From assembly GCF_003334255.1 (NCBI RefSeq), contig NZ_QOWU01000010.1: a DNA stretch of 64,000 nt. One strand, 5' to 3'. How positions within the stretch are numbered: position 1 is the stretch's first letter; each line of letters opens with the position of its first letter. The DNA comes from Escherichia coli. GTDB taxonomy: Bacteria > Pseudomonadota > Gammaproteobacteria > Enterobacterales > Enterobacteriaceae. The position numbers and the translations under genes were made by a program. The notes beneath the pieces are model-generated. The model was not told where the DNA came from, searched no databases, and saw only the letters and a list, made by a program, of their open reading frames with translations. Positions 41,314 to 57,234 of this stretch are shown in pieces.

Positions 41314-41335
41314 GACGGCCTCTGCTGAGGCCGTC
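41314..41335. terminator. stem-loop between convergent pntB and tqsA
   Basis: GACGGCCTC-tgctg-AGGCCGTC hairpin immediately after pntB stop. Confidence 0.45.
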
Positions 41336-42240
41336 ACTCTTTATTGAGATCGCTTAACAGAACGGCGATGCTTTGACCTCCCGCTGTTTGTTCAAGCGCA
41401 ATTTTGACAATAATTGTCAACGGCACGGAAAGCAGCATACCCACCGGTCCTAACAACCATCCCCAAAAAATCAACGACAAAAATACCACCAATGTGGAAA
41501 GCCCCAGCCCACGCCCCATGATACGCGGCTCCAGAATATTGCCGAAGACCAGATTAATCAGCAGATATCCCGCCAGCACCAGCAACGCTTCGTAGAAGCC
41601 ATTAAACACCAGTACCTGAGCGATAGGGGGGATTGCCGCGAGGACTGAACCAATATTCGGGATGTAATTAAGCGCAAAGGCCAGCAATCCCCAGACAAAA
41701 GCGAAGCGAACATCGAGTGCGGCGAGCATCGCCCAGGCGACCAGGCCGGTGATGATGCTGATGGCTGTTTTCAGCACCAGATAATGAGAAACACTGTCAA
41801 TCGCACGTTGAATCGCCGCCATCCCTTCAACCGGACGCGCCATCATTTGCTGAAATTTTCCGGGCAATTGTGGCACTTCGAGCAGCATAAACAGCACCGT
41901 CAGCAGCAATAAAAATATTGATGACATGGCATTAGATAACTGCGTCAATAAGTTGGTGAGCAACGTCATCGCCGCGTTCGGATCAATATAATGCGCCAGC
42001 TGGTCAACTGAGACGTCAATCCCTACGCGTTGCAACAACGGTTCAAGCGCTTGCAGCGGCGTCATAATAGAGTTGCGATATTGCGGTAACGTCCGCGTCA
42101 ACTCGTTGAGCGCGGAACCCAGATAAGCTAATAGCAACACCATCGCCATCACGATGATGGTCATCAAAATCGACACCGCCAGTACACGCGGCACACGCCA
42201 GCGGACCATGTGTTGCACCAGCGGGTTAAGAATAACAGCA
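41334..42240 (-). pseudogene. tqsA: tqsA (AI-2 exporter) 3' fragment, separated from its 5' end by the island
   Basis: Frame encodes ...[26 protein letters not shown]... to the normal C-terminus (SDLNKE); upstream of codon AVI the frame hits TGA/TAA stops in island DNA. Confidence 0.85.
42232..42240. repeat. left copy of 9-bp direct repeat (att core / target duplication)
   Basis: ATAACAGCA; identical copy at 57098-57106; both lie within tqsA codons 43-46. Confidence 0.7.
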
Positions 42241-42367
42241 TTTTATCATTTAGTGTTTTTTGCTGTTTCATAATGTTTCAGGCTGTGCATTATGTTTTTG
42301 ATTATCAACAGATTTGTGATTTTCCTTGTTCCAGCTTGTTTCACGTTGTAGCCCTTTGTGCAACGAT

Positions 42368-42391
42368 CGGTGTAGTCACTGGTGTAGTCAC
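42368..42391. promoter_or_regulatory. tandem GGTGTAGTCAC repeat near left end (candidate integrase arm-type site)
   Basis: CGGTGTAGTCACTGGTGTAGTCAC; near-identical copy at 57001-57024 near the right end. Confidence 0.4.
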
Positions 42392-42415
42392 TTTTTCGTA
42401 AAGAGGGGGTAAAAC

Positions 42416-43645
42416 GTGAGCAGAGCAATGAACAAACTGAGCGATACCTTGCTAAGGAAACTTCATGGTAAGCCAGCGGAGAAAAACACGTTTTATAGTG
42501 ATGGCGGAAACCTGAGCGTGAAATATTTAACATCAGGGAAATTGACCTGGTATTTCACATACAGGGCCGGAACGGGAAGGGAGACACGACCCGAACGCAT
42601 TAAGCTGGGAAGTTATCCTGATCTGAGCCTGAAAGCAGCCAGGGAAAAAGCCGCACAGTGTCGCACATGGCTGGCTGAGGGGAAAAATCCACGTCATGAG
42701 ATGAATTACACCGTACAGGAAGCGTTAAAGCCCGTAACGGTTGGCGATGCGCTCACCTACTGGCTTGAGTATTACGTAAAGGAAAACCGCGTGGATTATA
42801 TCGCCCTGAAAAGGCGACTTAATAATCACGTAATACAGCAGATTGGTGCTATGCCGCTGGATAAATGCGAGCTACGGCACTGGCTGGCCTGTTTTGACCA
42901 GGTGGCAAAGCGAACGCCTGTTACTGCCGGATTCGTGCTACAGGCGTGCAAACAGGCGCTTAAGTTCTGCCGTAGGCGGCGCTATGCAATCAGCAACGTT
43001 CTGGACGATCTGAACGTGGCGGACGTTGGGAAAAAACCGGATATAAGCGAACGTGTCTTAAGTAACAAAGAACTTGGCGAATTATTGCAGGCACTGGACA
43101 AAAAAATATTTTCCCCTTACTACGTCGCGTTAATCCGCCTCCTGATTGTCTTCGGAGCCAGGACGGTAGAACTGAGGCTATCGGAGATCGGGGAGTGGGA
43201 TTTTACGGAAATGCTATGGACCGTTCCGAAGGAGCACAGCAAAACGAAGGTCGCAATATTCCGGCCCATACCGGAAGCGATCCTGCCGTTCGTCACGCAG
43301 CTGGTGGAGCAGAACAGGCACACGGGCTTATTGCTGGGGGAAGTGAAACAGGAGGCCAGCGTATCGCAGTATGGAAGATTAGCGCACAGGAGGCTTAATC
43401 ATCCTCACTGGTCACTGCATGACATCCGGCGCACCTTTACAACCATGCTGAACGATTTAGGCGTTGATCCGCATGTCGTGGAGCAGCTTACAGGTCATCA
43501 GATGCCAGGAATGCAGCGAGTTTATAATCATTCCCGTTATCTGGATGCTAAACGCAATGCGCTGGATATGTGGATGGAGCGGTTAGGGATACTGGCGGGA
43601 ACACATGAAAACGTAACCACGCTACCAGTAGCCAGAAGAAAATAA
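42416..43645 (+). CDS. int: tyrosine integrase, P4-type
   Basis: 409-aa ORF, GTG start after AGAGGGGG; N-terminal arm-binding domain, C-terminal catalytic region with HDIRRT and downstream Tyr (RVYNHSRY). Confidence 0.9.
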   Translation: MSRAMNKLSDTLLRKLHGKPAEKNTFYSDGGNLSVKYLTSGKLTWYFTYRAGTGRETRPERIKLGSYPDLSLKAAREKAAQCRTWLAEGKNPRHEMNYTVQEALKPVTVGDALTYWLEYYVKENRVDYIALKRRLNNHVIQQIGAMPLDKCELRHWLACFDQVAKRTPVTAGFVLQACKQALKFCRRRRYAISNVLDDLNVADVGKKPDISERVLSNKELGELLQALDKKIFSPYYVALIRLLIVFGARTVELRLSEIGEWDFTEMLWTVPKEHSKTKVAIFRPIPEAILPFVTQLVEQNRHTGLLLGEVKQEASVSQYGRLAHRRLNHPHWSLHDIRRTFTTMLNDLGVDPHVVEQLTGHQMPGMQRVYNHSRYLDAKRNALDMWMERLGILAGTHENVTTLPVARRK

Positions 43646-44019: not shown

Positions 44020-44208
44020 GTGTTAAGCACTGATCGGTTTATACGTGAAAAAGAATGCGAAAAGCTAACAGGCCTTAGCCGCTCATGCCGCTACCGCCTG
44101 GAAAAGGCCGGACAATTCCCATCACGTCGTAAACTTGGCGGTCGTTCCGTTGGCTGGTCTTTATCCGAGGTTCTGGCCTGGAAGGATAGCTGCAAGGCAG
44201 TTCATTAA
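44020..44208 (+). CDS. alpA: AlpA-family phage transcriptional regulator / excision activator
   Basis: 62-aa ORF, GTG start after AAGGGGG; MLSTDRFIREKECEKLTGLSRSCRYRLEKAGQFPSRRKLGGRSVGWSLSEVLAWK matches AlpA/Vis-type HTH proteins. Confidence 0.85.
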   Translation: MLSTDRFIREKECEKLTGLSRSCRYRLEKAGQFPSRRKLGGRSVGWSLSEVLAWKDSCKAVH

Positions 44209-44351
44209 TCACGCTGGCGGCACACAGCCGCCACACATCAATCATCTGAACACAGAGCTATAACCATGAAGATTGAATATACGCCAGAACGTGGGCGGGG
44301 ATTCGTTCGCCCTGGTGAGACTGGAAAACCACAAAATTGGGGTTTTTCAGG

Positions 44352-44388
44352 CATAAAAAAAGCGGCCCCGAAATGGAGCCGCCTTTCT
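44352..44388 (-). terminator. rho-independent terminator for minus-strand island transcript
   Basis: On minus strand: AAAGGCGGCTCC-atttc-GGGGCCGCTTT followed by T7. Confidence 0.45.
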
Positions 44389-44477
44389 GAACAGATAACA
44401 CGCTGCGCCGTTTGTGTGTGTGATCCCAAACATAAGCACGGGGATGATAGCCGCTATCAGGCTGGTGGGCAATGCAA

Positions 44478-44651
44478 TCAGTCTGGTTCAGTTCGTTGCC
44501 ATACCTGCAATGAGCGCTTTTCCCTGTACTCTTTAAGGAATTGCTCAAGGGCAAAAGCACATGGCGCGAATCTTTCTGATTCATGCTCTATCTTTCTGCG
44601 CCGTCTTTTCCGTGCCGGTGATAATGTTTTGGTCAATTCTTTATCGGTCAT
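44478..44651 (-). CDS. hypothetical small basic protein (57 aa)
   Basis: MTDKELTKTLSPARKRRRRKIEHESERF...; ATG preceded by AGGA; downstream of orf101 on same strand, before the minus-strand terminator. Confidence 0.3.
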   Translation of the reverse strand: MTDKELTKTLSPARKRRRRKIEHESERFAPCAFALEQFLKEYREKRSLQVWQRTEPD

Positions 44652-44708
44652 TGTGTTGTCCTGCATAGCAATGCGCCGTAATACCTCACACCACGGCGCT
44701 GATAGTGA

Positions 44709-45014
44709 TTATTCTGATTCTTTGGCCTTGCGGCGCTGTAGTTCTTCACGAGCGATGGCGATAAGTTGCCCGAGTTCTTCCGTAGCTTTAATACCAATTT
44801 TTTCCACTTGCGCCAATGCATCGAGAGAAGAAATCAGAGGATTTTCACTGCTTCCTTCTGCCTGGCGGCGGGCGATCTCCCCGCGCATGGCGGTTACTAT
44901 GAATCCGGCGTTGCTTTCGCCGTCCAGTTTTACGGATTCCATGCCATCAAAAGCATCATGTGGGATACGAATTGAAATCTGTTTTGATTTGTCGTTGATA
45001 GTGTTTTTTGCCAT
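44709..45014 (-). CDS. hypothetical protein (101 aa), candidate island regulator
   Basis: MAKNTINDKSKQISIRIPHDAFDG...; ATG preceded by AGGAGA; reads away from paired operator-like inverted repeats. Confidence 0.55.
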   Translation of the reverse strand: MAKNTINDKSKQISIRIPHDAFDGMESVKLDGESNAGFIVTAMRGEIARRQAEGSSENPLISSLDALAQVEKIGIKATEELGQLIAIAREELQRRKAKESE

Positions 45015-45036
45015 GTGCATTCTCCTAAACAAAAGA

Positions 45037-45112
45037 TGTGATTCAGTATACACAAAAAAGAATCACAAAAAACACTTGACCTGTGATTCAGTTGAATTTA
45101 ATTTAAATCACA
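45037..45112. promoter_or_regulatory. divergent promoter region with two operator-like inverted repeats
   Basis: TGTGATTC-N15-GAATCACA (45037-45067) and TGTGATTC-N16-AATCACA (45082-45112); TTGACC -35-like hexamer at 45076-45081. Confidence 0.55.
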
Positions 45113-45201
45113 CCTCAGTAAGAGGATGTAAACGACAACGCCCCGAACTGTTTGCGGCAGTAGCGGGGCGTCTAACCAAACCGTTAACAGGAGTAACGAT
45201 T

Positions 45202-45399
45202 ATGGCTGGAACACAGCATACCCCACGTCTGGCGCACACACAAACTGCCTTTGTGTGGCGTTTTCTGGCACTAAGTGCCGGAGAATCTCAAATCATCCAC
45301 GTAACCGCCTGGACGGAACGCGAAGCGCGTAGCCGTTGCCCGTCCGGTTGTGTTGCTGTATTCGCCGCCCGTATTCGTCAGGGGGTGTGCCATGCCTGA
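45202..45399 (+). CDS. small protein (65 aa), possibly Icd/Ash-like
   Basis: MAGTQHTPRLAHTQTAFVWRFLALSAGESQ...; ATG after AGGAG (45189-45193); first gene rightward of the operator region; family assignment from memory only. Confidence 0.45.
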   Translation: MAGTQHTPRLAHTQTAFVWRFLALSAGESQIIHVTAWTEREARSRCPSGCVAVFAARIRQGVCHA

Positions 45400-45718: not shown

Positions 45719-46018
45719 ATGAGAACGTATTTATCTGGCTTTACTGCCAGCGGTTATGCACACCCCAAAATTATCCCCGGCGCTATTTATCTGGATAAGA
45801 ACGGTAACAGAGTAACGGTAAAAGAACTGATGTTTGACCGTGTGTATTTTATTCGTGATGGCTATTCATTTCATAGTTCGCTGAACGTGGAGATCTTTAT
45901 TAGCAGATTCCGGCGGGAAATCCCGCTTTCCAGAAATAACCATGTGTCATGTATGGATGTTGATAAAAAACTACAGGAACTGAAAAACATGATTGCCGCG
46001 TGGAGAGAGCAGAAATGA
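45719..46018 (+). CDS. hypothetical protein (99 aa)
   Basis: MRTYLSGFTASGYAHPKIIPGAIYLDKNGNRVTVKELMFDRVYFIRDGYSF...; stop overlaps primase start (ATGA). Confidence 0.5.
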   Translation: MRTYLSGFTASGYAHPKIIPGAIYLDKNGNRVTVKELMFDRVYFIRDGYSFHSSLNVEIFISRFRREIPLSRNNHVSCMDVDKKLQELKNMIAAWREQK

Positions 46019-47832
46019 AAAAAGCGCCAAATTTAAAACACCAGCCGCGTGACAAAATGACGGAAGTCATCATTTTTGCGGGTAGTGATGCGTGGGCACA
46101 TGCGAAGCAGTGGCAGGAACAGGACGGGCGACTGGCTGGCGATAACGTGCCACCTGTCTGGCTTGGAGAGCAACAACTTGCCGAACTGGACAACCTGCAA
46201 ATCGTACCGGACGGACGCTATCGCGTGCGTCTCTACCAGGCGGGGTTATTGCGTCCGGGGCTTGTTAATACCATCGGGCAGAAACTGGCAGCGGCAGGTG
46301 TCAGGGATGCTGATTATTACCCTGAAGGAATGCACAGCCAGAAACGGGAGAACTGGCGCGAATATCTGGAACGTGAGCGGGGAGAGCTGGCGGAAAAGAA
46401 AAAGGTAGTTGAACTGCCTGTAAAGAAAAAAGAGCGGGTAAAAGACGATAACGCTTCATCACTGGCGCTTAACCAGATGGGAGCAAGTCAACGCGGCGAA
46501 GTTCTCCTGGCACATTATGGCGGTGAACTGGCGATTCATGCTGACTCTGACACTGTTCACTATTACAACGGCGTTGTATGGGAGCCAGTACAGGATAAAG
46601 AATTACAGCGAGCTATGGCGCAGATTTTCATTGATGCGGAGATCAGCTATTCGCAGAACGCCATTAAATCGGCGGTCGATACCATGAAGTTAAGTTTGCC
46701 TGTAATGGGGAATACAGCCCGTAACCTGATTGGATTCAGTAACGGTGTTTTTGATACCCGGACAGGCGATTTTCGGGAGCATAACAAAAACGACTGGTTG
46801 TTAATTGCCAGTGAATTACCTTTCAGCCCACCAGCAGAGGGGGAAACGCTGGCAACACATGCGCCGAATTTCTGGAAGTGGTTACGCCGTTCGGTGGCTG
46901 AGAATGACCGCAAGGCGGATCGCGTACTGGCTGCATTATTCATGGTGCTGGCGAACCGGTACGACTGGCAGTTATTCATTGAGGTAACAGGTCCAGGGGG
47001 AAGTGGTAAAAGCGTGATGGCGGAGATTTGCACCATGCTGGCGGGTAAGGCCAACACGGTATCGGCAAGCATGAAGGCGCTGGAAGATGCCAGGGAACGC
47101 GCGTTAGTGGTTGGCTTTTCGCTGATTATCATGCCGGATATGACCCGTTACGCTGGTGATGGCGCAGGAATTAAGGCCATTACAGGCGGTGACAAGGTGG
47201 CAATCGACCCGAAGCATAAAGCCCCCTACTCAACACGCATTCAGGCGGTAGTGTTGGCGGTGAACAATAACGCCATGTCATTCAGTGACCGCAGCGGGGG
47301 GATTTCACGTCGTCGGGTGATATTCAATTTTTCGGAGGTTGTACCGGAAAACGAACGCGACCCCATGCTGGCAGAAAAAATAGAAGGAGAGCTGGCGGTT
47401 GTGATTCGCCACCTGCTTACTCGTTTTTCTGACCAGGACGCAGCTAAACGCCTGCTGTATGAGCAGCAGAAATCAGAAGAAGCTCTGGTGATAAAACGCG
47501 AGGGCGATTCGCTGGTGGACTTCTGCGGCTATCTCATGTCGTCGGTAATGTGTGATGGTCTGTTAGTGGGTAATGCCGAAATTATTCCGTTCAGTCCGCG
47601 CAGGTATCTTTATCACGCCTATCTGGCATATATGAGGGCACACGGATTCGGTAAACCTGTAACACTGACGCGCTTCGGTAAAGATATGCCGGGGGCAATG
47701 GCGGAATATGGCAGGGAGTATATGAAACGGAAAACGAAGCACGGTTTGCGTTCAAACGTGACACTGACGGAGGAATCAGAAGACTGGATGCCATCATGTG
47801 TATCGGTCACTAATGACGATAGCAAAAATTAA
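46015..47832 (+). CDS. P4 alpha-like replication protein (primase/NTPase, P-loop)
   Basis: 605-aa ORF with Walker A GPGGSGKS and Walker B-like region; followed immediately by TGTTCACC iteron cluster. Confidence 0.8.
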   Translation: MKKAPNLKHQPRDKMTEVIIFAGSDAWAHAKQWQEQDGRLAGDNVPPVWLGEQQLAELDNLQIVPDGRYRVRLYQAGLLRPGLVNTIGQKLAAAGVRDADYYPEGMHSQKRENWREYLERERGELAEKKKVVELPVKKKERVKDDNASSLALNQMGASQRGEVLLAHYGGELAIHADSDTVHYYNGVVWEPVQDKELQRAMAQIFIDAEISYSQNAIKSAVDTMKLSLPVMGNTARNLIGFSNGVFDTRTGDFREHNKNDWLLIASELPFSPPAEGETLATHAPNFWKWLRRSVAENDRKADRVLAALFMVLANRYDWQLFIEVTGPGGSGKSVMAEICTMLAGKANTVSASMKALEDARERALVVGFSLIIMPDMTRYAGDGAGIKAITGGDKVAIDPKHKAPYSTRIQAVVLAVNNNAMSFSDRSGGISRRRVIFNFSEVVPENERDPMLAEKIEGELAVVIRHLLTRFSDQDAAKRLLYEQQKSEEALVIKREGDSLVDFCGYLMSSVMCDGLLVGNAEIIPFSPRRYLYHAYLAYMRAHGFGKPVTLTRFGKDMPGAMAEYGREYMKRKTKHGLRSNVTLTEESEDWMPSCVSVTNDDSKN

Positions 47833-47846
47833 ACTTATGGAATAAC

Positions 47847-48076
47847 TGTTCACCACTGTTCACCCTGTCATAAATATCTTTTGTATCAGTATGTTATAGG
47901 GTGAACAGTTATTTATGAACTGTTCACCAAACTATTCACTGTTCACCTTTTTGATTGTTTATTGAGCTTCAAGGGTGAACAGTGGTGAATAGTTGGTGAA
48001 TAGTTTTTGTGAAACTGTTCACCCCTTAACATTATGAATTAAAAGATAAAATATCAAAAGGTGAACAGGTGAAGGG
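47847..48076. repeat. iteron cluster (TGTTCACC / GGTGAACA), candidate origin of replication
   Basis: At least 8 exact 8-mers in both orientations (47847, 47857, 47899, 47921, 47940, 47974, 48016, 48060) plus degenerate GGTGAATA copies in an AT-rich 230-bp non-coding stretch. Confidence 0.8.
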
Positions 48077-49060: not shown

Positions 49061-49084
49061 AGCCGGAGAAATCCGGCTTTTTTT
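49061..49084 (+). terminator. rho-independent terminator
   Basis: AGCCGGAG-aa-ATCCGGCT hairpin followed by T7. Confidence 0.65.
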
Positions 49085-49414: not shown

Positions 49415-49436
49415 AGCCGGAGCAATCCGGCTTTTT
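49415..49436 (+). terminator. rho-independent terminator (near-duplicate of 49061-49084)
   Basis: AGCCGGAG-caa-TCCGGCT hairpin followed by T5. Confidence 0.65.
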
Positions 49437-49696
49437 GTCATTTTTTGTAAATTATTTGTTCGTGGTTGTTCCACGTTGTTCACTGACAGGATCGGCATAT
49501 TTTACCCGAACTGAATCATGAGTATTCTCGCCCGTGGTGCCAGGACGCTGGGGCCACTTTCCCGCCTGTTAATGTGCTCGCCAATATTCATTACCAGGCG
49601 GGAAAACGATCGGTGCGATTGCTGATTTCCTTATGAAAAACGGTTGAGTTTTTGCCGCGTCCTGGAGTTCCTTACTTAACCCCAGGACTTTTTTTT

Positions 49697-50854
49697 ATGC
49701 CGAGAATAATCGAATTACGCCAGCAGAAAACCGCCATTAAAAATCAGATGCGCGACATGCTGGAGAACGCGGAAAAAGAAAACCGCAGCCTTAACGATGC
49801 AGAGGGCGCAAAATTTGACGAATTACGCGCTAAAGCTGAATCCCTCGATAAAGACATTTCCCGCCTTGAAGCCATTGCAGACGAAGAGCGCAGCAAGCCA
49901 GGTAAAAGCAGCCAGACCACTGACCCGGCAGAACTCCGCAACTACATCCTGACAGGTGAAACCCGCGCATTAAGTACAGGCGTTCCCGCTGATGGTGGTT
50001 ATACCGTTATCCCCGAACTGAACACCGAAATCATGCGAATGCTGACGGATGAATCCACCATGCGCCGCATCTGTACCGTGAAGAAAATCAGCAGCAACGA
50101 GTTTAAGCAGCTTGTTTCCGCTGGCGGTGCGACCGTTAACCACGGTGAAGAGGGTAAGACACGCGAACAGACCAGCACCCCGCAGATTAACGAGGTGAGC
50201 ATTAAGCTGTATCCGGTCTATGCGTACCCGCGCACCACACAGGAAATCGTGGATTTTTCCGATGTGGACATCCTTTCATGGCTGACGGGTGAGATTGGCG
50301 ACACCTTCACGGAAACCGAAGAAAGCGATCTGGTTGTGGGCGACGGTGACAAAAAAGCAAAAGGTTTTTTATCCGTACCCCGTGCAGAGAAGAACGACAA
50401 AGAGCGTGATTTTGGTACGTTGCAGGTAATTAAACCTTCCGAATCTCTGGCGTGGACATCTGCGGACCCGCTGATCGACCTGAAATTTGCATTACGTAAA
50501 AAATACCGCAAAAACGCGGTCTGGGTGGTTAACTCCACGACGGCGGCAAAACTTCAGAAGGTGAAGAACGCGAACGGTGATTACATCTGGCGCGACCGTT
50601 TACAGGCGGGTGATCCTGATACGTTGCTGGGCCTTCCGGTCGAATATCTGGAGTTTATGCCTGATAACGTTATTGCCCTGGGTGACTTCAAACGCGGTTA
50701 CTACATTGTTGATCACGAAACAGGTGTTCGCACCAGACCGGACAACCTCACAGAGCCGGGCTTCATCAAAATTTTCACGCAGAAATATTTAGGCGGTGGC
50801 GTGGTGGATTCGAACGCGATCAAGATTCTGGAACTGCCACAGGACGACGATTAA
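49697..50854 (+). CDS. major capsid protein, HK97 fold, with N-terminal coiled-coil (delta/scaffold-like) region
   Basis: 385 aa from ATG 49697 (MPRIIELRQQKTAIKNQMRDMLENAEKENRSLNDAEGAKFDELRAK...); capsid-family core follows. Confidence 0.85.
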   Translation: MPRIIELRQQKTAIKNQMRDMLENAEKENRSLNDAEGAKFDELRAKAESLDKDISRLEAIADEERSKPGKSSQTTDPAELRNYILTGETRALSTGVPADGGYTVIPELNTEIMRMLTDESTMRRICTVKKISSNEFKQLVSAGGATVNHGEEGKTREQTSTPQINEVSIKLYPVYAYPRTTQEIVDFSDVDILSWLTGEIGDTFTETEESDLVVGDGDKKAKGFLSVPRAEKNDKERDFGTLQVIKPSESLAWTSADPLIDLKFALRKKYRKNAVWVVNSTTAAKLQKVKNANGDYIWRDRLQAGDPDTLLGLPVEYLEFMPDNVIALGDFKRGYYIVDHETGVRTRPDNLTEPGFIKIFTQKYLGGGVVDSNAIKILELPQDDD

Positions 50855-50864
50855 CAGCATACAG

Positions 50865-50893
50865 AAGGGGCTTAAAAGCCCCTTTAGTGTTTT
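50865..50893 (+). terminator. stem-loop after capsid gene (attenuator/terminator)
   Basis: AAGGGGCTT-aaa-AGCCCCTT followed by TAGTGTTTT. Confidence 0.5.
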
Positions 50894-51466
50894 ATGGGTG
50901 AAAAAATTATGAAGAGTATGGAAATCCGGTCATCGGAAATCACCACCAGCGCCAGCAACACGCTTACAGGCTACGTTGTTCGCTGGGATAAGCTTTCAGA
51001 GCTGCTATGGGGGGAGTTTTACGAAAAATTCCAGCGGGGAGCGTTTACTGAATGGCTTGCGGCGGGTAATGACGTTCGCGGCCTGTATGAGCATGACCAC
51101 AGCATGTTGCTGGGGCGTACCCGTTCCGGCACGCTGAAACTGGAAGAGGACGAAACAGGGTTACGCTTTGAACTGACCCCACCGGATACCAGTACAGGGC
51201 GCGACGTTATCGAACTGGTTAAGCGTGGGGACATCTCGGGGATGAGCTTTGGCTTTCGCTCCCGTAAGGATGTATGGGATACCACAACAGATCCATGCGT
51301 GCGCACCGTGCTGGTGGCGGAACTGTACGAAATTACCGTTACATCGGTACCGGCTTACCCCGATTCCGGCGTGGAGCTGGCCCGCCGTTCCCTGTATGAG
51401 CAGCACCCCGAAAAAATGCCGCGTGCGGATAATCGCCGCTGGTGGGTGGATTTAGCGGGGGTGTGA
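50894..51466 (+). CDS. prohead maturation protease, HK97 family
   Basis: 190-aa ORF (true start may be ATG 50909); GAFTEWLAAGNDVRGLYEHDHSMLLGRTRSGTLKLEEDETGLRFELTPPDTSTGRD...GDISGMSFGF matches HK97-type prohead protease. Confidence 0.8.
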   Translation: MGEKIMKSMEIRSSEITTSASNTLTGYVVRWDKLSELLWGEFYEKFQRGAFTEWLAAGNDVRGLYEHDHSMLLGRTRSGTLKLEEDETGLRFELTPPDTSTGRDVIELVKRGDISGMSFGFRSRKDVWDTTTDPCVRTVLVAELYEITVTSVPAYPDSGVELARRSLYEQHPEKMPRADNRRWWVDLAGV

Positions 51467-51467
51467 T

Positions 51468-52679
51468 ATGTGGCTTTTCAGAAGAAAAAAAGAGCAGCGC
51501 AGCATGACGCTTGATGAATTTATGGCGCTGGCTGGCACATCGAACACGGGGGCGGGTGAGTACGTATCATCGGGGACAGCGGAATCACTGCCCGCCGTCA
51601 TGAACGCCGTGACGGTCATCTCTGAGGCGGTGGCTACCATGCCGTGTTACCTGTACCTGGTACGCAATGAGAAGGGGAAGGAGGCCCGCGAGTGGCTTGA
51701 TTCTCATCCGGTCGATCACATCCTCAACGAGCGCCCGAACGCGTGGCAGACTCCCTACCAGTTTAAGCGAATGATGATCCGCCACTGCCTGTTAAACGGT
51801 AATGCTTATGCGGTGATTCAGTGGGGGCGTGATGGTTTTCCGGTGGCTTTACATCCTTACCCGCCGCAGTCGGTGAACGTGGAGCAGACAGGCGAACACA
51901 ACTGGCGCTACTGCATCACTGACGCCTACACCGGAAACACCCGCAACTATTTACCGTGGGAGGTTCTCCACCTTCGTTACTCCACGGATGACGGTTTTAT
52001 GGGGCGCTCACCTGTAACCATCTGCCGCGAATCGCTGGGGCTTGGGCTGGCCCAACAACGCCACGGCGCGAGCGTGATGCGTGATGGCATGATGGCGGCA
52101 GGGGTTATCACGTCAGGCGAATGGCTGGACGGCGTGAAGGGCAAACAGGCATTAGCCGCACTGGAACGCTACAAAGGGGCCAGAAACGCCGGAAAAACGC
52201 CCATCCTTGAAGGGGGTATGAGCTATCAGCAGCTGGGCATGAGTAATCAGGATGCTGAATGGCTGGCCTCCCGTCGCTTCACCATTGAAGACATCGCCCG
52301 AATGTTCAACGTCTCGCCGATTTTTCTGCAGGAATACAGCAACAGCACCTACAGCAATTTCAGCGAGGCAAGCCGCGCATTTCTCACCATGACAATGCGC
52401 CCGTGGCTGGCGAACTTTGAGCAGCAGATAAAAAACGCCCTGCTGGTGGCCTCGCCTGTACCTGGTATCCGGTATCAGGTGGAGTTTGACAGCGCGGACC
52501 TGTTACGGGCCACACCTGGCGAACGCTTTGCCACCTATGAACGCGGCATCAAATCCGGCGTTATGTGCCCGAACGAAGCCCGCGAACGTGAAGGGCTGTC
52601 CCCGCGTGATGGTGGTGATGAGTTCAGCCAGGCATGGAAACAGGAAGTAAAAATCAGCGAGGGAGAAAAACCGGAATGA
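51468..52679 (+). CDS. portal protein, HK97 family
   Basis: 403-aa ORF; N-terminal region ...MPCYLYLVRNEKGKEAREWLDSHPVDHILNERPNAWQTPYQFKRMMIRHCLLNGNAYAV typical of HK97-like portals. Confidence 0.8.
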   Translation: MWLFRRKKEQRSMTLDEFMALAGTSNTGAGEYVSSGTAESLPAVMNAVTVISEAVATMPCYLYLVRNEKGKEAREWLDSHPVDHILNERPNAWQTPYQFKRMMIRHCLLNGNAYAVIQWGRDGFPVALHPYPPQSVNVEQTGEHNWRYCITDAYTGNTRNYLPWEVLHLRYSTDDGFMGRSPVTICRESLGLGLAQQRHGASVMRDGMMAAGVITSGEWLDGVKGKQALAALERYKGARNAGKTPILEGGMSYQQLGMSNQDAEWLASRRFTIEDIARMFNVSPIFLQEYSNSTYSNFSEASRAFLTMTMRPWLANFEQQIKNALLVASPVPGIRYQVEFDSADLLRATPGERFATYERGIKSGVMCPNEAREREGLSPRDGGDEFSQAWKQEVKISEGEKPE

Positions 52680-53014
52680 ACATAGGGCGACTGCGTGACA
52701 GGGTAACGATTCAGACCCTGAAACAGACCAGGGATATAACCGGCGAAATACTCGAAACGTGGGAGGACGGTCACACACTCTGGGCAAGCGTGAACATGAT
52801 CAGCAGCAAGGAGGCCATTTCATCGGGTGCAGAGCTGGCGATTGGTACCGTAAGGATCTGGATACGGTACCGGAAGGACATCAATGCCACCAGCCGGATA
52901 AAGGTCAGTACGGGGCCGCTGGCGGGGCGTGTACTGAATATCATCGGGCAGCCGCTGCCGGATGCCGCCAGGACACGCCTTGAAATTCTTTGTCGTGAGG
53001 GCGCGGAAAAATGA
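52676..53014 (+). CDS. head-tail adaptor / head closure protein
   Basis: 112 aa from ATG 52676 overlapping portal stop (MNIGRLRDRVTIQTLKQTRD...). Confidence 0.65.
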   Translation: MNIGRLRDRVTIQTLKQTRDITGEILETWEDGHTLWASVNMISSKEAISSGAELAIGTVRIWIRYRKDINATSRIKVSTGPLAGRVLNIIGQPLPDAARTRLEILCREGAEK

Positions 53015-53307
53015 CAGAAGAACTTATCACCCTGGAAGAAGTGAAACTCCATTGCCGCATCGATGGCGACGAGGAAGACCAGTTAATCAGCGGATACATC
53101 GCCGCATCGCTTGAGGCGTGCCAGATACACATAGGCAGGCGCTTTGATGACGGGCTGGAGTTCACGCCAGCCATAAAGATTGGCTGCATGATGTTTATCG
53201 CTCACCTGTATGAAAATCGCCAGATTGTCGCGGATAACGCAAAAACACGCGTACCCATGACGATTGGTGCACTCTGGACGGCTTACCGTGATGTGGGGGT
53301 GTACTGA
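53011..53307 (+). CDS. gp6-like head-tail connector protein
   Basis: 98-aa ORF MTEELITLEEVKLHCRIDGDEEDQLISGYIAASLEACQIHIGRRF... Confidence 0.65.
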   Translation: MTEELITLEEVKLHCRIDGDEEDQLISGYIAASLEACQIHIGRRFDDGLEFTPAIKIGCMMFIAHLYENRQIVADNAKTRVPMTIGALWTAYRDVGVY

Positions 53308-53747
53308 TGCCGTGGCAACCATTAAGACGATGCACAGAACCAGGCTGTAACAGGCGCGTGAAGTCCGGCAAGTGTGAGGAGCACAGGCGGGCGGCATGGC
53401 GTGCAGAGGATGCCAGACGAGGACACCGCCGCGCGCGTGGGTACTCCAGACAGTGGGACAAATACCGCGCCATGTATCTGAGTAAAAACCCGTTATGCGT
53501 GCGATGCCTTGAGAAGGGGATATATACGCCCGCCGTGGTGGTGGATCACATTATCCCGATTAATGGCGGTGATGATGTTCTCTTCTGGCCCGAATGGAAC
53601 CATCAGCCATTGTGCCAGGCGTGCCATAACCAGAAAACGAAATGGCTTGATCCGGCAACAAAAAGCAAGCGTGCCGCAGGTGGATTTCGTGAAGAGGAAG
53701 AACGGGCCGCTAACCGCAATAACTGGATGTATGACGCTGATGAATGA
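53307..53747 (+). CDS. HNH endonuclease (packaging-associated)
   Basis: 146-aa ORF with Cys pairs (CTEPGCNRRVKSGKCEEH, CVRC) and HNH core VVDHIIPINGG...NHQPLCQACHNQKT. Confidence 0.85.
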   Translation: MPWQPLRRCTEPGCNRRVKSGKCEEHRRAAWRAEDARRGHRRARGYSRQWDKYRAMYLSKNPLCVRCLEKGIYTPAVVVDHIIPINGGDDVLFWPEWNHQPLCQACHNQKTKWLDPATKSKRAAGGFREEEERAANRNNWMYDADE

Positions 53748-53913
53748 GCGGGAACAAAACCGCCTTATCCGTGGACTTATAAGGCAGCGTGACGCATGGA
53801 AGACACAGGAAACAGGGCATAAAGATAAAGCGTCAGGACGCGCAGAACGCATCACAGCGAAGCGATTAACCGACCGTGACCGCGAGGTTATGGAATGTTT
53901 CCGCAATCGCTGA
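53740..53913 (+). CDS. possible small charged protein (57 aa), translationally coupled to HNH gene
   Basis: ATG overlaps HNH stop; MNEREQNRLIRGLIRQRDAWKTQETGHKDKASGRAERITAKRLTDRDREVMECFRNR; no RBS evidence. Confidence 0.25.
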   Translation: MNEREQNRLIRGLIRQRDAWKTQETGHKDKASGRAERITAKRLTDRDREVMECFRNR

Positions 53914-54035
53914 TGAGGCTGTATGACGGGGTGGGGGGCGTTTTCAGGACAAACCCGACCCCGCCGGGCACCGACCGCCTCCTCAAATTTTTATGCACGG
54001 GAATTTTTTGAAAAATAATCTGACGAAAAATAAGC
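53914..54035. other. candidate cos/packaging-initiation region between HNH and terS
   Basis: Non-coding stretch with G/C-rich blocks (ACGGGGTGGGGGGCG, CCCGACCCCGCCGGGCACCGACCGCC) directly upstream of terS; HNH-cos-TerS arrangement is typical of HK97-like cos packaging. Confidence 0.3.
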
Positions 54036-54392
54036 ATGGCAAGACCACCGAAAGCCCCCGCCTACCTGGATGACATCGCCGTGAAGCAGTGGCGGGAAAA
54101 ATCGCGGCAGCTTGCGGAACGGGGAGACCTGACCCCCGCCGACTGGAGCAATCTGGAACTGTATTGTGTCAACTACTCCATTTACCGGAAAGCCGTCGCA
54201 GACCTTGCGGCGCGCGGGTTCAGCATTGTTAACAGTCAGGGCGGCGAGAGCAGAAACCCCGCATTAAGCGCGAAATCAGACGCTGAAAGGGTGATGATAA
54301 AAATGGCCTCCTTGCTCGGTTTTGACCCGATAAGCCGCCGTAAAAACCCACCGGAAACAGAAGAAGAGGACGAGCTTGACCGCCTGGAATAA
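54036..54392 (+). CDS. terminase small subunit (P27-like)
   Basis: 118-aa ORF MARPPKAPAYLDDIAVKQWREKSRQLAERGDLTPADWSNLELYCVNYSIYRKA...; overlaps terL start. Confidence 0.7.
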   Translation: MARPPKAPAYLDDIAVKQWREKSRQLAERGDLTPADWSNLELYCVNYSIYRKAVADLAARGFSIVNSQGGESRNPALSAKSDAERVMIKMASLLGFDPISRRKNPPETEEEDELDRLE

Positions 54393-56037
54393 GTACGCAG
54401 AAGACGTAAAAACGGGCAAAATTCAGGCCTGTAAACGGTTAAAACAGGCCGTTAAACGGTACTTTTCGGACCTTAAAAGCCCCCTTTACACGTTCGATCG
54501 TGAGGTTGTGGATCGGTTTATTGCCTTTTCCAGGGTGTGCCCGCACGTAAAAGGGCCGATGCGTGGCAGACCCATTGAGCTGGAGCCGTGGCAGCAGTTC
54601 GCCTTTGCGTGCATCCTCGGCTTTAAGGTTAAGGCCACCGGACGGCGCAAATATACGAGCGCCTTTATCGAAGTGCCGCGCAAAAATGCTAAATCAACGA
54701 CCGCCGCGATTCTGGCTAACTGGTTTCTGATTATGGAGAACGGTCAGCAGGATATTTACACCGCAGCGGTGAGCCGTGACCAGGCGAGGATCGTATTTGA
54801 TGATGCGCGTCAGATGTGCATTTTATCCCGACCGTTACGCAGGCGGGTGAATATTCAGGCGCATAAGGTGATACACCCGAAAACCAACAGCCTGTTAAAG
54901 CCGCTGGCAGCAAAAGCGGCAACTATCGAGGGCACAAACCCCAGTCTTTCTATCGTGGACGAATACCACCTACACCCCGACAACGGCGTATATTCTGCGC
55001 TTGAACTGGGGATGGGGGCACGTCCCGAAGGGCTGTTATTTGCCATTACCACATCGGGAAGTAACGTCGTTTCAGCCTGTAAGCAGCATTATGATTATTG
55101 CTGCCAGATCCTGGACGGCGAAGAGGTTAACGAATCGCTTTTTGTGCTGATTTACGAACTGGACGACGAAAACGAGGTTGATGATCCGGAGATGTGGATA
55201 AAGGCGAACCCTAATATCGATGTTTCCGTGGATCGTGAAAAACTGGCCTCAACCATTCAGAAAGCGCGGGGTATTCCGTCGCAATGGGTGGAGATGATGA
55301 CAAAGCGATTTAATATCTGGTGTCAGGGGACTACCCCGTGGATGGGTAATGGTGCATGGGCTGAGTGTGCCGGAACGTTCACGGAGGAAGATTTACACGG
55401 TCAGGAGTGTTACGCGGGGCTGGACTTATCATCAACCAGCGATATTTCCAGCGTGTGCTATGCCTTTCCGGTCGGTAAAACCATTATGATGATTTCCCGT
55501 CATTATCTGCCGGAGTTCCAGCTACAGAACCCCGCCAATAAAAACCGCGCTGTCTATCGTCAGTGGGCTAAAGCAGGCTGGATACGCACAACGCCTGGCG
55601 ACTGCATTGATTACGACCGGATCAGAGATGACATCATGCAGGACGCGGAGAAATTTAATATCAGGCTGGTGGGCTTTGATACGTGGAACGCCACGCATCT
55701 CAGAACGCAATTACAGGGGGCAGGTTTTGAGGTGGAGCCGTTCCCGCAAACCTACCTCAGATTCAGTCCGGCGGCGAAATCGTTCGAAGTTTTTGTTAAC
55801 CGCAGGGTGATTGTGCATCGTGGCGATCCGGTGTTGTCCTGGTCGATGAGTAACGTCGTGATGCAGAGTGACGCGAACGCCAATATCAAGCCGAACAAGA
55901 AAAAATCACCGAACAAGATAGACCCGAGCGTGGCGGCGCTGATGGCGTTTGGTACATTCCAGGCAGAGCATGAGGATTTTGCTTTTGATATAAGCGACAG
56001 CCACCGCCAGAAACTGGAAGAATTTAGCGGGGTGTAA
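54376..56037 (+). CDS. terminase large subunit
   Basis: 553-aa ORF with ATPase P-loop region (VPRKNAKSTTAA) and C-terminal nuclease-type domain. Confidence 0.85.
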   Translation: MTAWNKYAEDVKTGKIQACKRLKQAVKRYFSDLKSPLYTFDREVVDRFIAFSRVCPHVKGPMRGRPIELEPWQQFAFACILGFKVKATGRRKYTSAFIEVPRKNAKSTTAAILANWFLIMENGQQDIYTAAVSRDQARIVFDDARQMCILSRPLRRRVNIQAHKVIHPKTNSLLKPLAAKAATIEGTNPSLSIVDEYHLHPDNGVYSALELGMGARPEGLLFAITTSGSNVVSACKQHYDYCCQILDGEEVNESLFVLIYELDDENEVDDPEMWIKANPNIDVSVDREKLASTIQKARGIPSQWVEMMTKRFNIWCQGTTPWMGNGAWAECAGTFTEEDLHGQECYAGLDLSSTSDISSVCYAFPVGKTIMMISRHYLPEFQLQNPANKNRAVYRQWAKAGWIRTTPGDCIDYDRIRDDIMQDAEKFNIRLVGFDTWNATHLRTQLQGAGFEVEPFPQTYLRFSPAAKSFEVFVNRRVIVHRGDPVLSWSMSNVVMQSDANANIKPNKKKSPNKIDPSVAALMAFGTFQAEHEDFAFDISDSHRQKLEEFSGV

Positions 56038-56050
56038 TGAGGTCAGCAGC

Positions 56051-56332
56051 ATGACAGAAGCCGAAATAACGGGATTAATCCGCCGCGTTGCCGGAATCAG
56101 CCAGCAGGCTGACGAACAGGCCACGCAGCCGGACAGCGTGACAGCCGAAAACTATGCGCGTGTTGTTGCTGAGGTGATGCGCCGTGATGGTATAGAACTT
56201 AATGGCGTGGATATGCGCAACATACGAACCAGAGTTCTTGAGTTGCTGGCCTACCGTCGCCGCGTGGAGATGTATCGGGAGAAGGAGAAAATAACGTACC
56301 ACTGGAAGAAGCCGGAGCGGTTGCGGCGGTAA
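56051..56332 (+). CDS. hypothetical protein (93 aa)
   Basis: MTEAEITGLIRRVAGISQQADEQATQPDSVTAENYARVVAEVMRRDGIEL...; ATG after GAGGT, 14 bp downstream of terL stop. Confidence 0.5.
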   Translation: MTEAEITGLIRRVAGISQQADEQATQPDSVTAENYARVVAEVMRRDGIELNGVDMRNIRTRVLELLAYRRRVEMYREKEKITYHWKKPERLRR

Positions 56333-56419
56333 CTGGTTGATATTCCCGACGGACCAAAAATGGGTGGCTACATCCCTCGCTTCTGAGGACTGTTAACAAG
56401 CTGCCTGAAAGACAGTCAC

Positions 56420-56890
56420 AAACTACGAAATTTTCGCAGTTTAATTAATGATCAGCTTAATCGCTAACCCGCTGATATTTTCGGAAACCTCAATTTGAGG
56501 AAGTCGGCGCGGTAACTCGCTGAACTTTAAGCAAAGTGCAAAATTGCGCTTGCTGAATAATCATTATGATTACGCAGATGATTAAGGAATGACCGAAGGC
56601 GGAAATTCGCCTGTGGTTAATGGGGGAGTTGCAGATCTGCAACTCGACCATGAAACTACGGAAACTACCCGTAGTTTGGGTAGTAAGAGTAACACCCAGA
56701 TTTTGGGTCTTACTCGTGATACCCAAATTTGGGGTATCAGTGGCAACCATAACGACTTTCGTTACGGTTGATGCTTTTACCCCATTGGGGGAAAGGTATT
56801 ACGATAATCATAACACCTACCGAACAGGTAAAGCCCACCAGCCTGATTAACGTTTAACCGGAAAAAAATTCCGGTAGGTGGGGATCCCCA
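56420..56890. other. palindrome-dense non-coding region at island right end
   Basis: Ten dyad-symmetric elements including perfect 20-bp palindrome GAGTTGCAGATCTGCAACTC (56626-56645) and three TACCC..GGGTA-type dyads about 25 bp apart; overlapping small ORFs lack RBS. Confidence 0.6.
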
Positions 56891-57000
56891 TATCGACATT
56901 AACGCCCCTCATGAATTGGTGCGCTTCCCCCTGGAAAGATGATCCGCCTGTATATTTCTTGTGTCTATTTGTTCCACGTTGTTTCATACAGTGCACCGAA

Positions 57001-57024
57001 CGGTGTAGTCACTGGTGTAGTCAT
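57001..57024. promoter_or_regulatory. tandem GGTGTAGTCA repeat near right end (candidate integrase arm-type site)
   Basis: CGGTGTAGTCACTGGTGTAGTCAT, counterpart of 42368-42391. Confidence 0.4.
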
Positions 57025-57097
57025 TTTGCGATTTTTGGCACTTTTTGCGGTGAAAATTATTTAATTAAATCAACGTGTTATGTGAAATAAGTTATAT

Positions 57098-57106
57098 ATA
57101 ACAGCA
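57098..57106. repeat. right copy of 9-bp direct repeat (att core)
   Basis: ATAACAGCA, identical to 42232-42240. Confidence 0.7.
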
Positions 57107-57234
57107 ATAAATAATGCGAGAATAAACGGCACGATGATCTCGGCGGCAAAACGGATACCGCAGAGAATAATGACCAGCATTCCCAACATAATGACGATTT
57201 TTAGGCCATTGAGCGTGATGATCGGCTTTGCCAT
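57098..57234 (-). pseudogene. tqsA: tqsA 5' fragment (codons 1-46) separated from the rest of the gene
   Basis: Minus-strand ATG at 57234 encodes [46 protein letters not shown] then runs into island DNA (YNLFHITR, stop). Confidence 0.85.

Follow-up and report, generated by a model that had tools for sequence, protein, structure and literature searches.

Which kind of mobile element carries the block of phage-type head and packaging genes found at positions 49697 to 56037 of the 64-kb Escherichia coli window (the whole stretch of DNA that was analyzed)? The original prediction had delimited this block as a head and packaging module, and its coordinates are exact, with the capsid ATG at position 49697 and the terL stop codon ending at position 56037. 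We are highly confident that the block is the head-building and DNA-packaging operon of a capsid-forming phage-inducible chromosomal island (cf-PICI), and that this island is a close variant of the published E. coli element EcCIEDL933. We found no feature of the sequence that contradicts this assignment.

Strain EDL933 has an empty tqsA site, and alignment with it set the borders of the element. The island has inserted into tqsA and measures 14,857 bp between two 9-bp att repeats, a size within the range of att-bounded cf-PICIs (~10–18 kb), and the packaging block makes up its right half. The att core ATAACAGCA is found at 42232..42240 (attL, the left junction inside tqsA) and again at 57098..57106 (attR, the right junction), a 9-bp duplication compared with the empty site. 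At the left end we find the integrase, AlpA-type regulator and primase of a cf-PICI, all on the + strand, namely a tyrosine integrase (42416..43645; phrog_1, 6.3e-72; so annotated by RefSeq in near-identical islands), an AlpA-family regulator/excisionase (44020..44208; phrog_2790, 1.7e-17; PF05930 on the identical gene) and a D5-type primase/replicase (46015..47832; phrog_864, 2.1e-193). The Pfam domains on the identical left-arm genes are Phage_integrase, Phage_AlpA and D5_N, and the arm also carries genes for SSB and PerC. A cluster of iterons with the sequence (A/C)ACTGTTCACC in both orientations, forming direct and inverted repeat families, spans 47826..48068, and judging from this repeat arrangement it is the probable replication origin.

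The gene identities given in the original prediction were borne out by PHROGs matches for all eight packaging genes, and the scores against the NCBIfam equivalog models lie above the curated cut-offs. All eight genes are on the + strand. The HK97-type major capsid protein of 385 aa (49697..50854; PHROGs 1.8e-88; TIGR01554) scores 295 bits against major_cap_HK97 (cut-off 27.5). It is followed by an HK97-family prohead protease of the S78 type (50894..51466; phrog_80, 7.6e-67; TIGR01543; proheadase_HK97, 179 bits, cut-off 59) and the portal protein (51468..52679; phrog_12, 1.1e-116; TIGR01537; portal_HK97, 244 bits, cut-off 112). The head-closure protein Hc1 (PF05521), which publications on cf-PICIs call the 'head-tail adaptor', lies at 52676..53014 (phrog_25, 1.3e-34; TIGR01563; gp16_SPP1, 54 bits, cut-off 20.6); it most likely starts at 52676, giving 112 aa as in RefSeq, rather than at 52634. 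Next come the gp6-like head-tail connector Ad1 (PF05135; 53011..53307; phrog_40, 7.9e-36; TIGR01560; put_DNA_pack, 92 bits, cut-off 24), the HNH endonuclease (53307..53747; phrog_144, 8.1e-45), the small terminase TerS of the P27 family (54036..54392; phrog_83, 2.6e-39; TIGR01558; sm_term_P27, 60 bits, cut-off 45.6) and the large terminase TerL with a TTG start codon (54376..56037; phrog_9, 1.8e-179). Downstream of terL a 93-aa ORF is encoded on the same strand (56051..56332; phrog_1561, 2.9e-56), which follows terL in most relatives and was detected in 57 of 80 loci. The eight packaging genes and the three left-arm genes add up to 11 components. SatelliteFinder requires 11 components for its Type A, and by our own reading those of the island match its component list.

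No island ORF matches a scaffold family in PHROGs, in agreement with the predicted lack of a separate scaffold gene, and neither the annotation nor PHROGs revealed tail or lysis (holin) genes among the island ORFs. The prediction had further proposed that the island builds its own small, self-scaffolded procapsid. This proposal is well supported, since the capsid protein is identical at 385 of 385 residues to PDB 9GYI, the EcCIEDL933 capsid, for which cryo-EM has revealed the HK97 fold and a T=4 particle of 47.5 nm; maturation strips the first 92 residues from the prototype protein, so that the mature chain begins at residue 93, within an SxGxxAD motif (10.1101/2025.02.11.637232). Here this motif reads S93-T-G-V-P-A-D99, and with the published mature start the delta or scaffolding domain corresponds to residues 1–92 (49697–49972, + strand). 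The assignment of a small T=4 capsid to the present island is made by this sequence identity alone. In a BLASTP comparison with HK97 gp5 the capsid protein gave no significant match (E 0.085), and the fold relationship therefore rests on the solved structure.

With the phages HK97 and HK106 the island shares the absence of a scaffold gene, a capsid protein of HK97 fold whose N-terminal delta domain is cleaved off, the S78 protease, portal, Ad1 and Hc1, and the TerS/TerL pair together with an HNH gene adjoining cos (in the island, the probable cos). HNH-assisted cos packaging is the mode of HK97-type machinery. Judged by their alignments, HNH (39% identical to HK97 gp74, E 2e-19), TerL (27% identical to gp2 over nearly the full length, E 3e-47) and the portal (26% identical to gp3) are distant but clear homologues of the HK97 proteins. 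The capsids differ, that of HK97 being T=7 and the published EcCIEDL933 capsid T=4 and free of covalent crosslinks. Unlike these phages, the island lacks tail and lysis genes as well as the immunity or lysogeny-switch module, and its gene order is also not that of a complete HK97-like temperate phage. In HK97 and HK106 the order is terS-terL-portal-protease-capsid-Ad1-Hc1 with HNH last, whereas the island runs capsid-protease-portal-Hc1-Ad1-HNH-terS-terL. This is not a simple circular permutation, as capsid-protease-portal and Hc1-Ad1 are each reversed with the strand unchanged. The order had been called atypical, and this holds with respect to HK97 and HK106. Among proteobacterial cf-PICIs, however, exactly this succession of capsid, protease, portal and connectors, then hnh, terS and terL, is the conserved, published hallmark, and we find it in 80 of 80 IMG/VR relatives.

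The closest relative with known biology is EcCIEDL933, the prototype cf-PICI of E. coli O157:H7 EDL933, in which mutation of each module gene abolished island transfer, except that a mutant in gene 1792 was still severely affected; the island makes the small capsids and needs only tails from the helper (Alqurainy et al., bioRxiv 10.1101/2022.09.08.507074). Published experiments also show its induction by the helper phage via AlpA and its dependence on helper tails for infectivity. Over 6.94 kb the two modules are 97.7% identical at the nucleotide level, with the same nine genes in the same order. The nine proteins are of equal length, free of stops and 96–100% identical: capsid, Ad1, TerS and the 60-aa orf60 product are the same in both (100%), and the others (96–99%) deviate slightly, among them the protease (98.9%), HNH (99.3%), TerL (98%, eleven substitutions) and Hc1 (96.4%, four substitutions). 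The changes in Hc1 and TerL could in principle alter the compatibility with tails or cos. Upstream of the module SSB, PerC and orf75 are also 100% identical, and the 93-aa ORF is 87% identical. Integrase (91%) and AlpA (98.4%) are similar as well. Between alpA and the replicase gene the two islands differ, and the D5-type primase of the present island is replaced in EcCIEDL933 by a DUF927 protein. The two replicases share 28.6% identity, and therefore the replication module has been swapped. At 14.86 kb the present island falls into one size class with EcCIEDL933 (15.4 kb), and the two occupy different sites, EcCIEDL933 being inserted between roxA and phoQ in a chromosome with an intact tqsA.

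A decayed HK97-like prophage, left as a non-functional remnant without tail, lysis and early genes, would also contain proteins of HK97-type families and lack tail genes. We regard this explanation as highly improbable. All genes are intact and have the lengths found in functional EcCIEDL933, and the left half is an integrase/AlpA/primase module of the PICI type. The compact architecture recurs in all 80 relatives and at two att sites, tqsA and roxA/phoQ, where islands with exactly the same capsid protein are seen, and in the assembly collection 13,523 indexed blocks contain this exact protein. In addition, the capsids and TerL of cf-PICIs form deep clades apart from phages in published phylogenies.

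The gap between HNH and terS had been described as non-coding. This is correct for the 122-bp intergenic spacer at 53914..54035, but the preceding stretch (53731..53913, + strand) codes for orf60, a basic, conserved 60-aa ORF (phrog_3173, 7.5e-37; RefSeq WP_000174068.1) which overlaps the HNH stop codon and is found in 80 of 80 related loci. Counting from the capsid gene as gene 1786, orf60 is probably gene 1792 of EcCIEDL933. The predicted packaging by HNH-aided cos cleavage is supported as well, being published for EcCIEDL933 with its near-identical module, and cohesive ends have been published for a related cf-PICI. The spacer, GGGGTGGGGGG ... GTTTTCAGGAC ... GACCGCCTCCTCAAATTTTT, is the candidate cos region, and the cos site probably lies within it, upstream of terS. 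The linear record LR881103 breaks directly after GTTTTCAGGAC. The record of vB_KppS-Ant is linearised within the equivalent spacer and has ~57 nt fewer than the E. coli elements, and because of these missing nucleotides its ends may be a choice of assembly or curation. Among 63 distinct relatives the spacer is conserved to the same degree as the flanking coding DNA and no higher, and these sequences have diverged too little to pinpoint a site. Alignment of the spacer with the HK97 genome ends was not significant; a weak resemblance to the right end consists of a G-run followed ~40–50 nt later by GACCGCC..CC..AAA. Between the G-run and the C-rich segment we considered a conserved hairpin, but dropped it because the second clade does not keep the pairing. 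Possibly the spacer holds a cos site unlike that of the helper in sequence, and the orf60 protein might be a cos-binding specificity factor for TerS/HNH.

Immediately upstream of the capsid gene the sequence and its RNA fold show a terminator-like hairpin with a U8 tract ending at the capsid ATG (49659..49696, + strand; z = -4.99 for the leader fold). The hairpin is retained in the clade of EcCIEDL933-type capsids and missing from the other clade. Rfam gave no match anywhere in the window. Being joined directly to the start codon, the hairpin might make expression of the head genes dependent on antitermination. That both ideas hold together, orf60 and the spacer restricting packaging to island DNA and the leader hairpin imposing antitermination on the head genes, we consider rather unlikely.

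The published experiments on the near-identical EcCIEDL933 suggest how the present island would work. A helper phage would trigger AlpA, upon which the island would excise from tqsA and replicate. Starting from the island portal, the capsid protein would then form a small T=4 procapsid, its delta domain (residues 1–92) taking the place of a scaffold protein until the S78 protease cuts it off. TerS, TerL and HNH, aided by the orf60 protein, would recognise and cut cos on island concatemers, and one island genome of ~15 kb would be packaged per head. Finally Ad1 and Hc1 would close the portal and form the docking surface for the tails of an HK97-like helper, e.g., HK106; the 64-kb window itself contains no prophage. 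In this division of labour heads and packaging specificity would come from the island, and induction, tails and lysis from the helper.

The island resembles the classical PICIs (EcCICFT073, SaPIs) and P4 in its integrase/AlpA/primase left arm, its helper-induced cycle and its small capsids. These satellites remodel the capsid proteins of the helper and borrow its TerL; unlike them, the present island has genes of its own for capsid, protease, portal, connectors and TerL. Classical PICIs and P4 hamper helper packaging and a related cf-PICI blocks its helper, which would fit a module serving chiefly to interfere with infecting phages, with capsid and terminase as defence or decoy, instead of spreading the island. 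According to published experiments, however, EcCIEDL933 transfers at high frequency; it leaves helper reproduction unreduced, and helper transfer is unaffected in packaging-gene mutants. With a module 96–100% identical to that of EcCIEDL933, a chiefly interfering role is very improbable here, and island spread remains the preferred function.

To sum up, the EcCIEDL933-type biology has already been worked out in publications, the present module is of a known kind, and the general picture of cf-PICIs gains nothing new from this copy. Such islands spread chromosomal DNA, also across species, by means of their own heads and borrowed tails. What the present island shows is that the packaging module of EcCIEDL933 also occurs in company with another integrase and replicase; its site here is tqsA, an AI-2 transporter gene that the insertion disrupts. 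The finding is mainly useful for annotation, in which this region should appear as a cf-PICI and not as a defective prophage.

The region 49697-56037 is a compact run of plus-strand reading frames, most of which overlap or abut their neighbors. It starts exactly at the ATG of the capsid gene and ends exactly at the stop codon of terL, as had been proposed for the head and packaging module. Matches to PHROGs identified the major head protein (49697-50854, E 1.8e-88), the head maturation protease (50894-51466, E 7.6e-67), the portal (51468-52679, E 1.1e-116), the head closure protein Hc1 (52676-53014, E 1.3e-34), the head-tail adaptor Ad1 (53011-53307, E 7.9e-36), the HNH endonuclease (53307-53747, E 8.1e-45), the small terminase (54036-54392, E 2.6e-39) and the large terminase (54376-56037, E 1.8e-179), all on the plus strand. 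Scores far over the curated cut-offs were obtained with the NCBIfam equivalog models of the HK97 capsid, prohead protease and portal, and likewise with those of SPP1 gp16 head closure, the gp6-like connector and the P27-family small terminase. No reading frame in or around the block matched a scaffold, tail or lysis family. Both the gene calls and the absence of a separate scaffold gene are borne out. Downstream of terL there is a 93-aa reading frame (56051-56332, phrog_1561) which was found in 57 of 80 relatives.

The gene order had been described as atypical. This is correct with respect to the phages HK97 and HK106, where the order is terS, terL, portal, protease, capsid, Ad1, Hc1 and tail genes, with HNH last before the right end. 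The difference is more than a circular permutation, because capsid-protease-portal and Hc1-Ad1 are each inverted in order with the strand unchanged. Within those phage-inducible chromosomal islands that are capsid-forming (cf-PICIs), however, the order of the module is the typical one. On the protein level TerL shares 27% identity with HK97 gp2 along almost its full length (E 3e-47), HNH 39% with gp74 (E 2e-19) and the portal 26% with gp3 (E 7e-35). The capsid protein showed no detectable similarity to gp5 in BLASTP (E 0.085), consistent with the remark of low sequence homology and a near-identical fold made by the authors of the capsid structure (10.1101/2025.02.11.637232).

The original prediction further assumed that no coding sequence lies between HNH and terS. 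This holds for 53914-54035, a 122-bp intergenic spacer, but not for 53731-53913, which encodes a strongly basic protein of 60 aa (orf60) and overlaps the HNH stop by 17 nt. This protein matches phrog_3173 (E 7.5e-37), is annotated as WP_000174068.1 in RefSeq copies of near-identical islands and was detectable in 80 of 80 related loci. Since the capsid gene of the prototype cf-PICI EcCIEDL933 is gene 1786 (10.1101/2025.02.11.637232), consecutive numbering would make terS 1793, terL 1794 and orf60 probably gene 1792. Mutation of this hypothetical gene severely affected transfer of EcCIEDL933 without abolishing it (10.1101/2022.09.08.507074).

The feature as such is already known. cf-PICIs have been defined with EcCIEDL933 as prototype (Alqurainy et al., bioRxiv 10.1101/2022.09.08.507074), which is located between roxA and phoQ in the EDL933 chromosome. 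It carries int, alpA and rep together with capsid, protease, portal, head-tail connectors, HNH, TerS and TerL and is without tail genes (10.1101/2022.09.08.507074). Over 6.94 kb, aligned with a single gap, our module is 97.7% identical to it on the nucleotide level. Protein identity is 100% for capsid, Ad1, orf60 and TerS, 99.3% for HNH and portal, 98.9% for protease, 98.0% for TerL and 96.4% for Hc1; all module proteins have the same lengths as in the prototype and none is interrupted by a stop codon. Outside the module SSB, PerC and an upstream 74-aa reading frame are also 100% identical. The integrase shows 91% identity, in keeping with the different att site, and the replicase is a D5-type primase here and a DUF927 protein in EcCIEDL933 (28.6% identity). 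Judged by these sequences, the window island is a mosaic sibling of EcCIEDL933 and shares its head and packaging module.

Chain B of PDB 9GYI, which is the capsid of EcCIEDL933 as modeled by cryo-EM, is identical to our capsid protein in 385 of 385 residues; the EcCIEDL933 protein has the HK97 fold and forms a 47.5-nm T=4 shell without decoration proteins and covalent crosslinks (10.1101/2025.02.11.637232). Next by sequence among the solved structures come the gene transfer agent capsid of Rhodobacter capsulatus (6TB9) and a related HK97-family capsid (6TBA), at E ~3e-46; the HK97 capsid is not among the closest structures. The mature EcCIEDL933 chain begins at residue 93 inside an SxGxxAD motif that HK97 also has (10.1101/2025.02.11.637232), which reads S93-T-G-V-P-A-D99 in our protein. 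Residues 1-92 are charged and contain Pro or Gly only at P2, G37, P68 and G69, a composition that fits a helical delta domain. The proposed self-scaffolding delta domain, small procapsid and HNH-aided cos packaging agree with the results published for this 96-100% identical protein set.

The capsid leader (49558-49605, 49659-49696) has an unusually strong predicted fold (z = -4.99). At 49659-49696 a terminator-like hairpin with U8 has its 3′ end exactly at the capsid ATG, and no Shine-Dalgarno sequence is visible before this ATG. The EcCIEDL933-type capsid clade retains the stem, also in a relative whose capsid is 69% identical and whose loop differs; the other clade lacks the stem and carries an ordinary ribosome-binding site. 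Further terminator-like hairpins are found at 49061-49078, 49415-49432 and, directly 3′ of the capsid gene as in HK97, at 50864-50885.

An island inserted in the AI-2 transporter gene tqsA carries the block as its right half. Alignment of the empty, intact tqsA of E. coli EDL933 to the window defined the junctions, a 9-bp duplication ATAACAGCA at 42232-42240 and 57098-57106, which gives an element of 14,857 bp. Genes for a tyrosine integrase, an AlpA-family regulator, a DUF4222 protein, the D5-type primase, SSB and a PerC-family activator lie in the left half together with small ORFs, and tail, holin and endolysin genes are absent from the island. Such a layout is that of a phage-inducible chromosomal island plus a head and packaging module. 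For this copy the sequence shows intact genes, identity to the prototype, the island boundaries and the absence of tail genes. A decayed prophage is an unlikely reading of this locus.

Directly downstream of the primase gene (47826-48068) we observed a dense iteron cluster of (A/C)ACTGTTCACC in both orientations with long imperfect palindromes, probably the island replication origin. About 80-150 nt inside the island ends a 76-nt imperfect direct repeat (42319-42394 and 56952-57027, 76% identity) contains tandem GGTGTAGTCACTGGTGTAGTCA in both copies and may represent arm-type binding sites of the integrase. The rightmost ~765 bp (56333-57097) are AT-rich, without an annotated gene in near-identical RefSeq copies and without an Rfam match; adjacent imperfect hairpins stand in a row at 56617-56784. 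A 377-aa plus-strand ORF (44266-45399) lying over a minus-strand gene (44709-45053, phrog_6522) is probably spurious; this region is variable, differently annotated among close relatives and ~167 bases longer than in strain G6/7. tqsA is interrupted ~137 nt into its coding sequence, and for other strains carrying this insertion RefSeq lists both pieces (41334-42240 and 57098-57234) as pseudogenes; AI-2 transport is therefore probably lost.

On our reading of the component list, the island has 11 of the 11 core components of the SatelliteFinder cfPICI definition, which forbids tails and holins; Type A elements occur in 13% of Enterobacteriaceae genomes (PMC10085698). The capsid and TerL of cf-PICIs form deep clades apart from phages (10.1101/2022.09.08.507074). 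The exact capsid sequence is very common, being indexed in 13,523 blocks of a public assembly collection, and tqsA and roxA/phoQ are the two att sites in use among the places shown. Of 5,426 complete E. coli genomes, ~1,900 match the island in some part. Three database entries filed under phages are apparently cf-PICI-like satellites, namely vB_KppS-Ant (LR881103.1, 16.5 kb) and Pasteurella Pmp8 and Pmp7 (OR544139.1 and OR544138.1, 15.3 and 10.7 kb). Integrase and primase genes are present in vB_KppS-Ant, which starts at terS and has the capsid-to-HNH order of the window; the 765-aa ORF 3′ of its terL, labeled tape measure protein, may be mis-annotated.

In the literature texts available to us we found no mapped cos for cf-PICIs of this kind; cohesive cos ends are reported for a related one (10.1101/2025.02.11.637232). 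By analogy with HNH phages of the HK97 type it is reasonable to place cos within 53914-54035, where GGGGTGGGGGG, GTTTTCAGGAC and GACCGCCTCCTCAAATTTTT are present. We compared 63 distinct sequences from 80 IMG/VR relatives, which comprise two TerS clades (99-100% and ~89% identity). Conservation of the spacer is on a par with that of the coding DNA on either side (minor-allele fraction 0.085 versus 0.074 and 0.060), and the divergence is too shallow to single out an individual site. LR881103, ~70% identical, is linearized in the equivalent spacer right after GTTTTCAGGAC (corresponding to window position 53950); these ends may not be physical ones because ~57 nt found in the E. coli elements are missing. 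In HK97 a G-run is followed 42 nt on by GACCGCCGCCAAA at the right terminus, and in our spacer the end of GACCGCCTCCTCAAA comes 49 nt after a G-run; on its own, the 7-mer in common does not reach significance. Taken together, the observation is confirmed and its interpretation supported with three corrections: the order is family-typical, the gap is part coding and the spacer upstream of terS is a candidate region for cos.

Mutation of each EcCIEDL933 packaging gene except 1792 abolished island transfer and left the helper unaffected; the small capsids are island-derived and helper tails are the sole helper part required (10.1101/2022.09.08.507074). A primarily defensive role of the module is unlikely. 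Most likely the window module would follow the published cf-PICI cycle, the functional steps of which we infer from the prototype. Ad1 and Hc1 set tail compatibility (10.1101/2025.02.11.637232), and with an Ad1 identical to that of EcCIEDL933 and an Hc1 at 96% identity, the module would be expected to receive its tails from an HK106-type phage.
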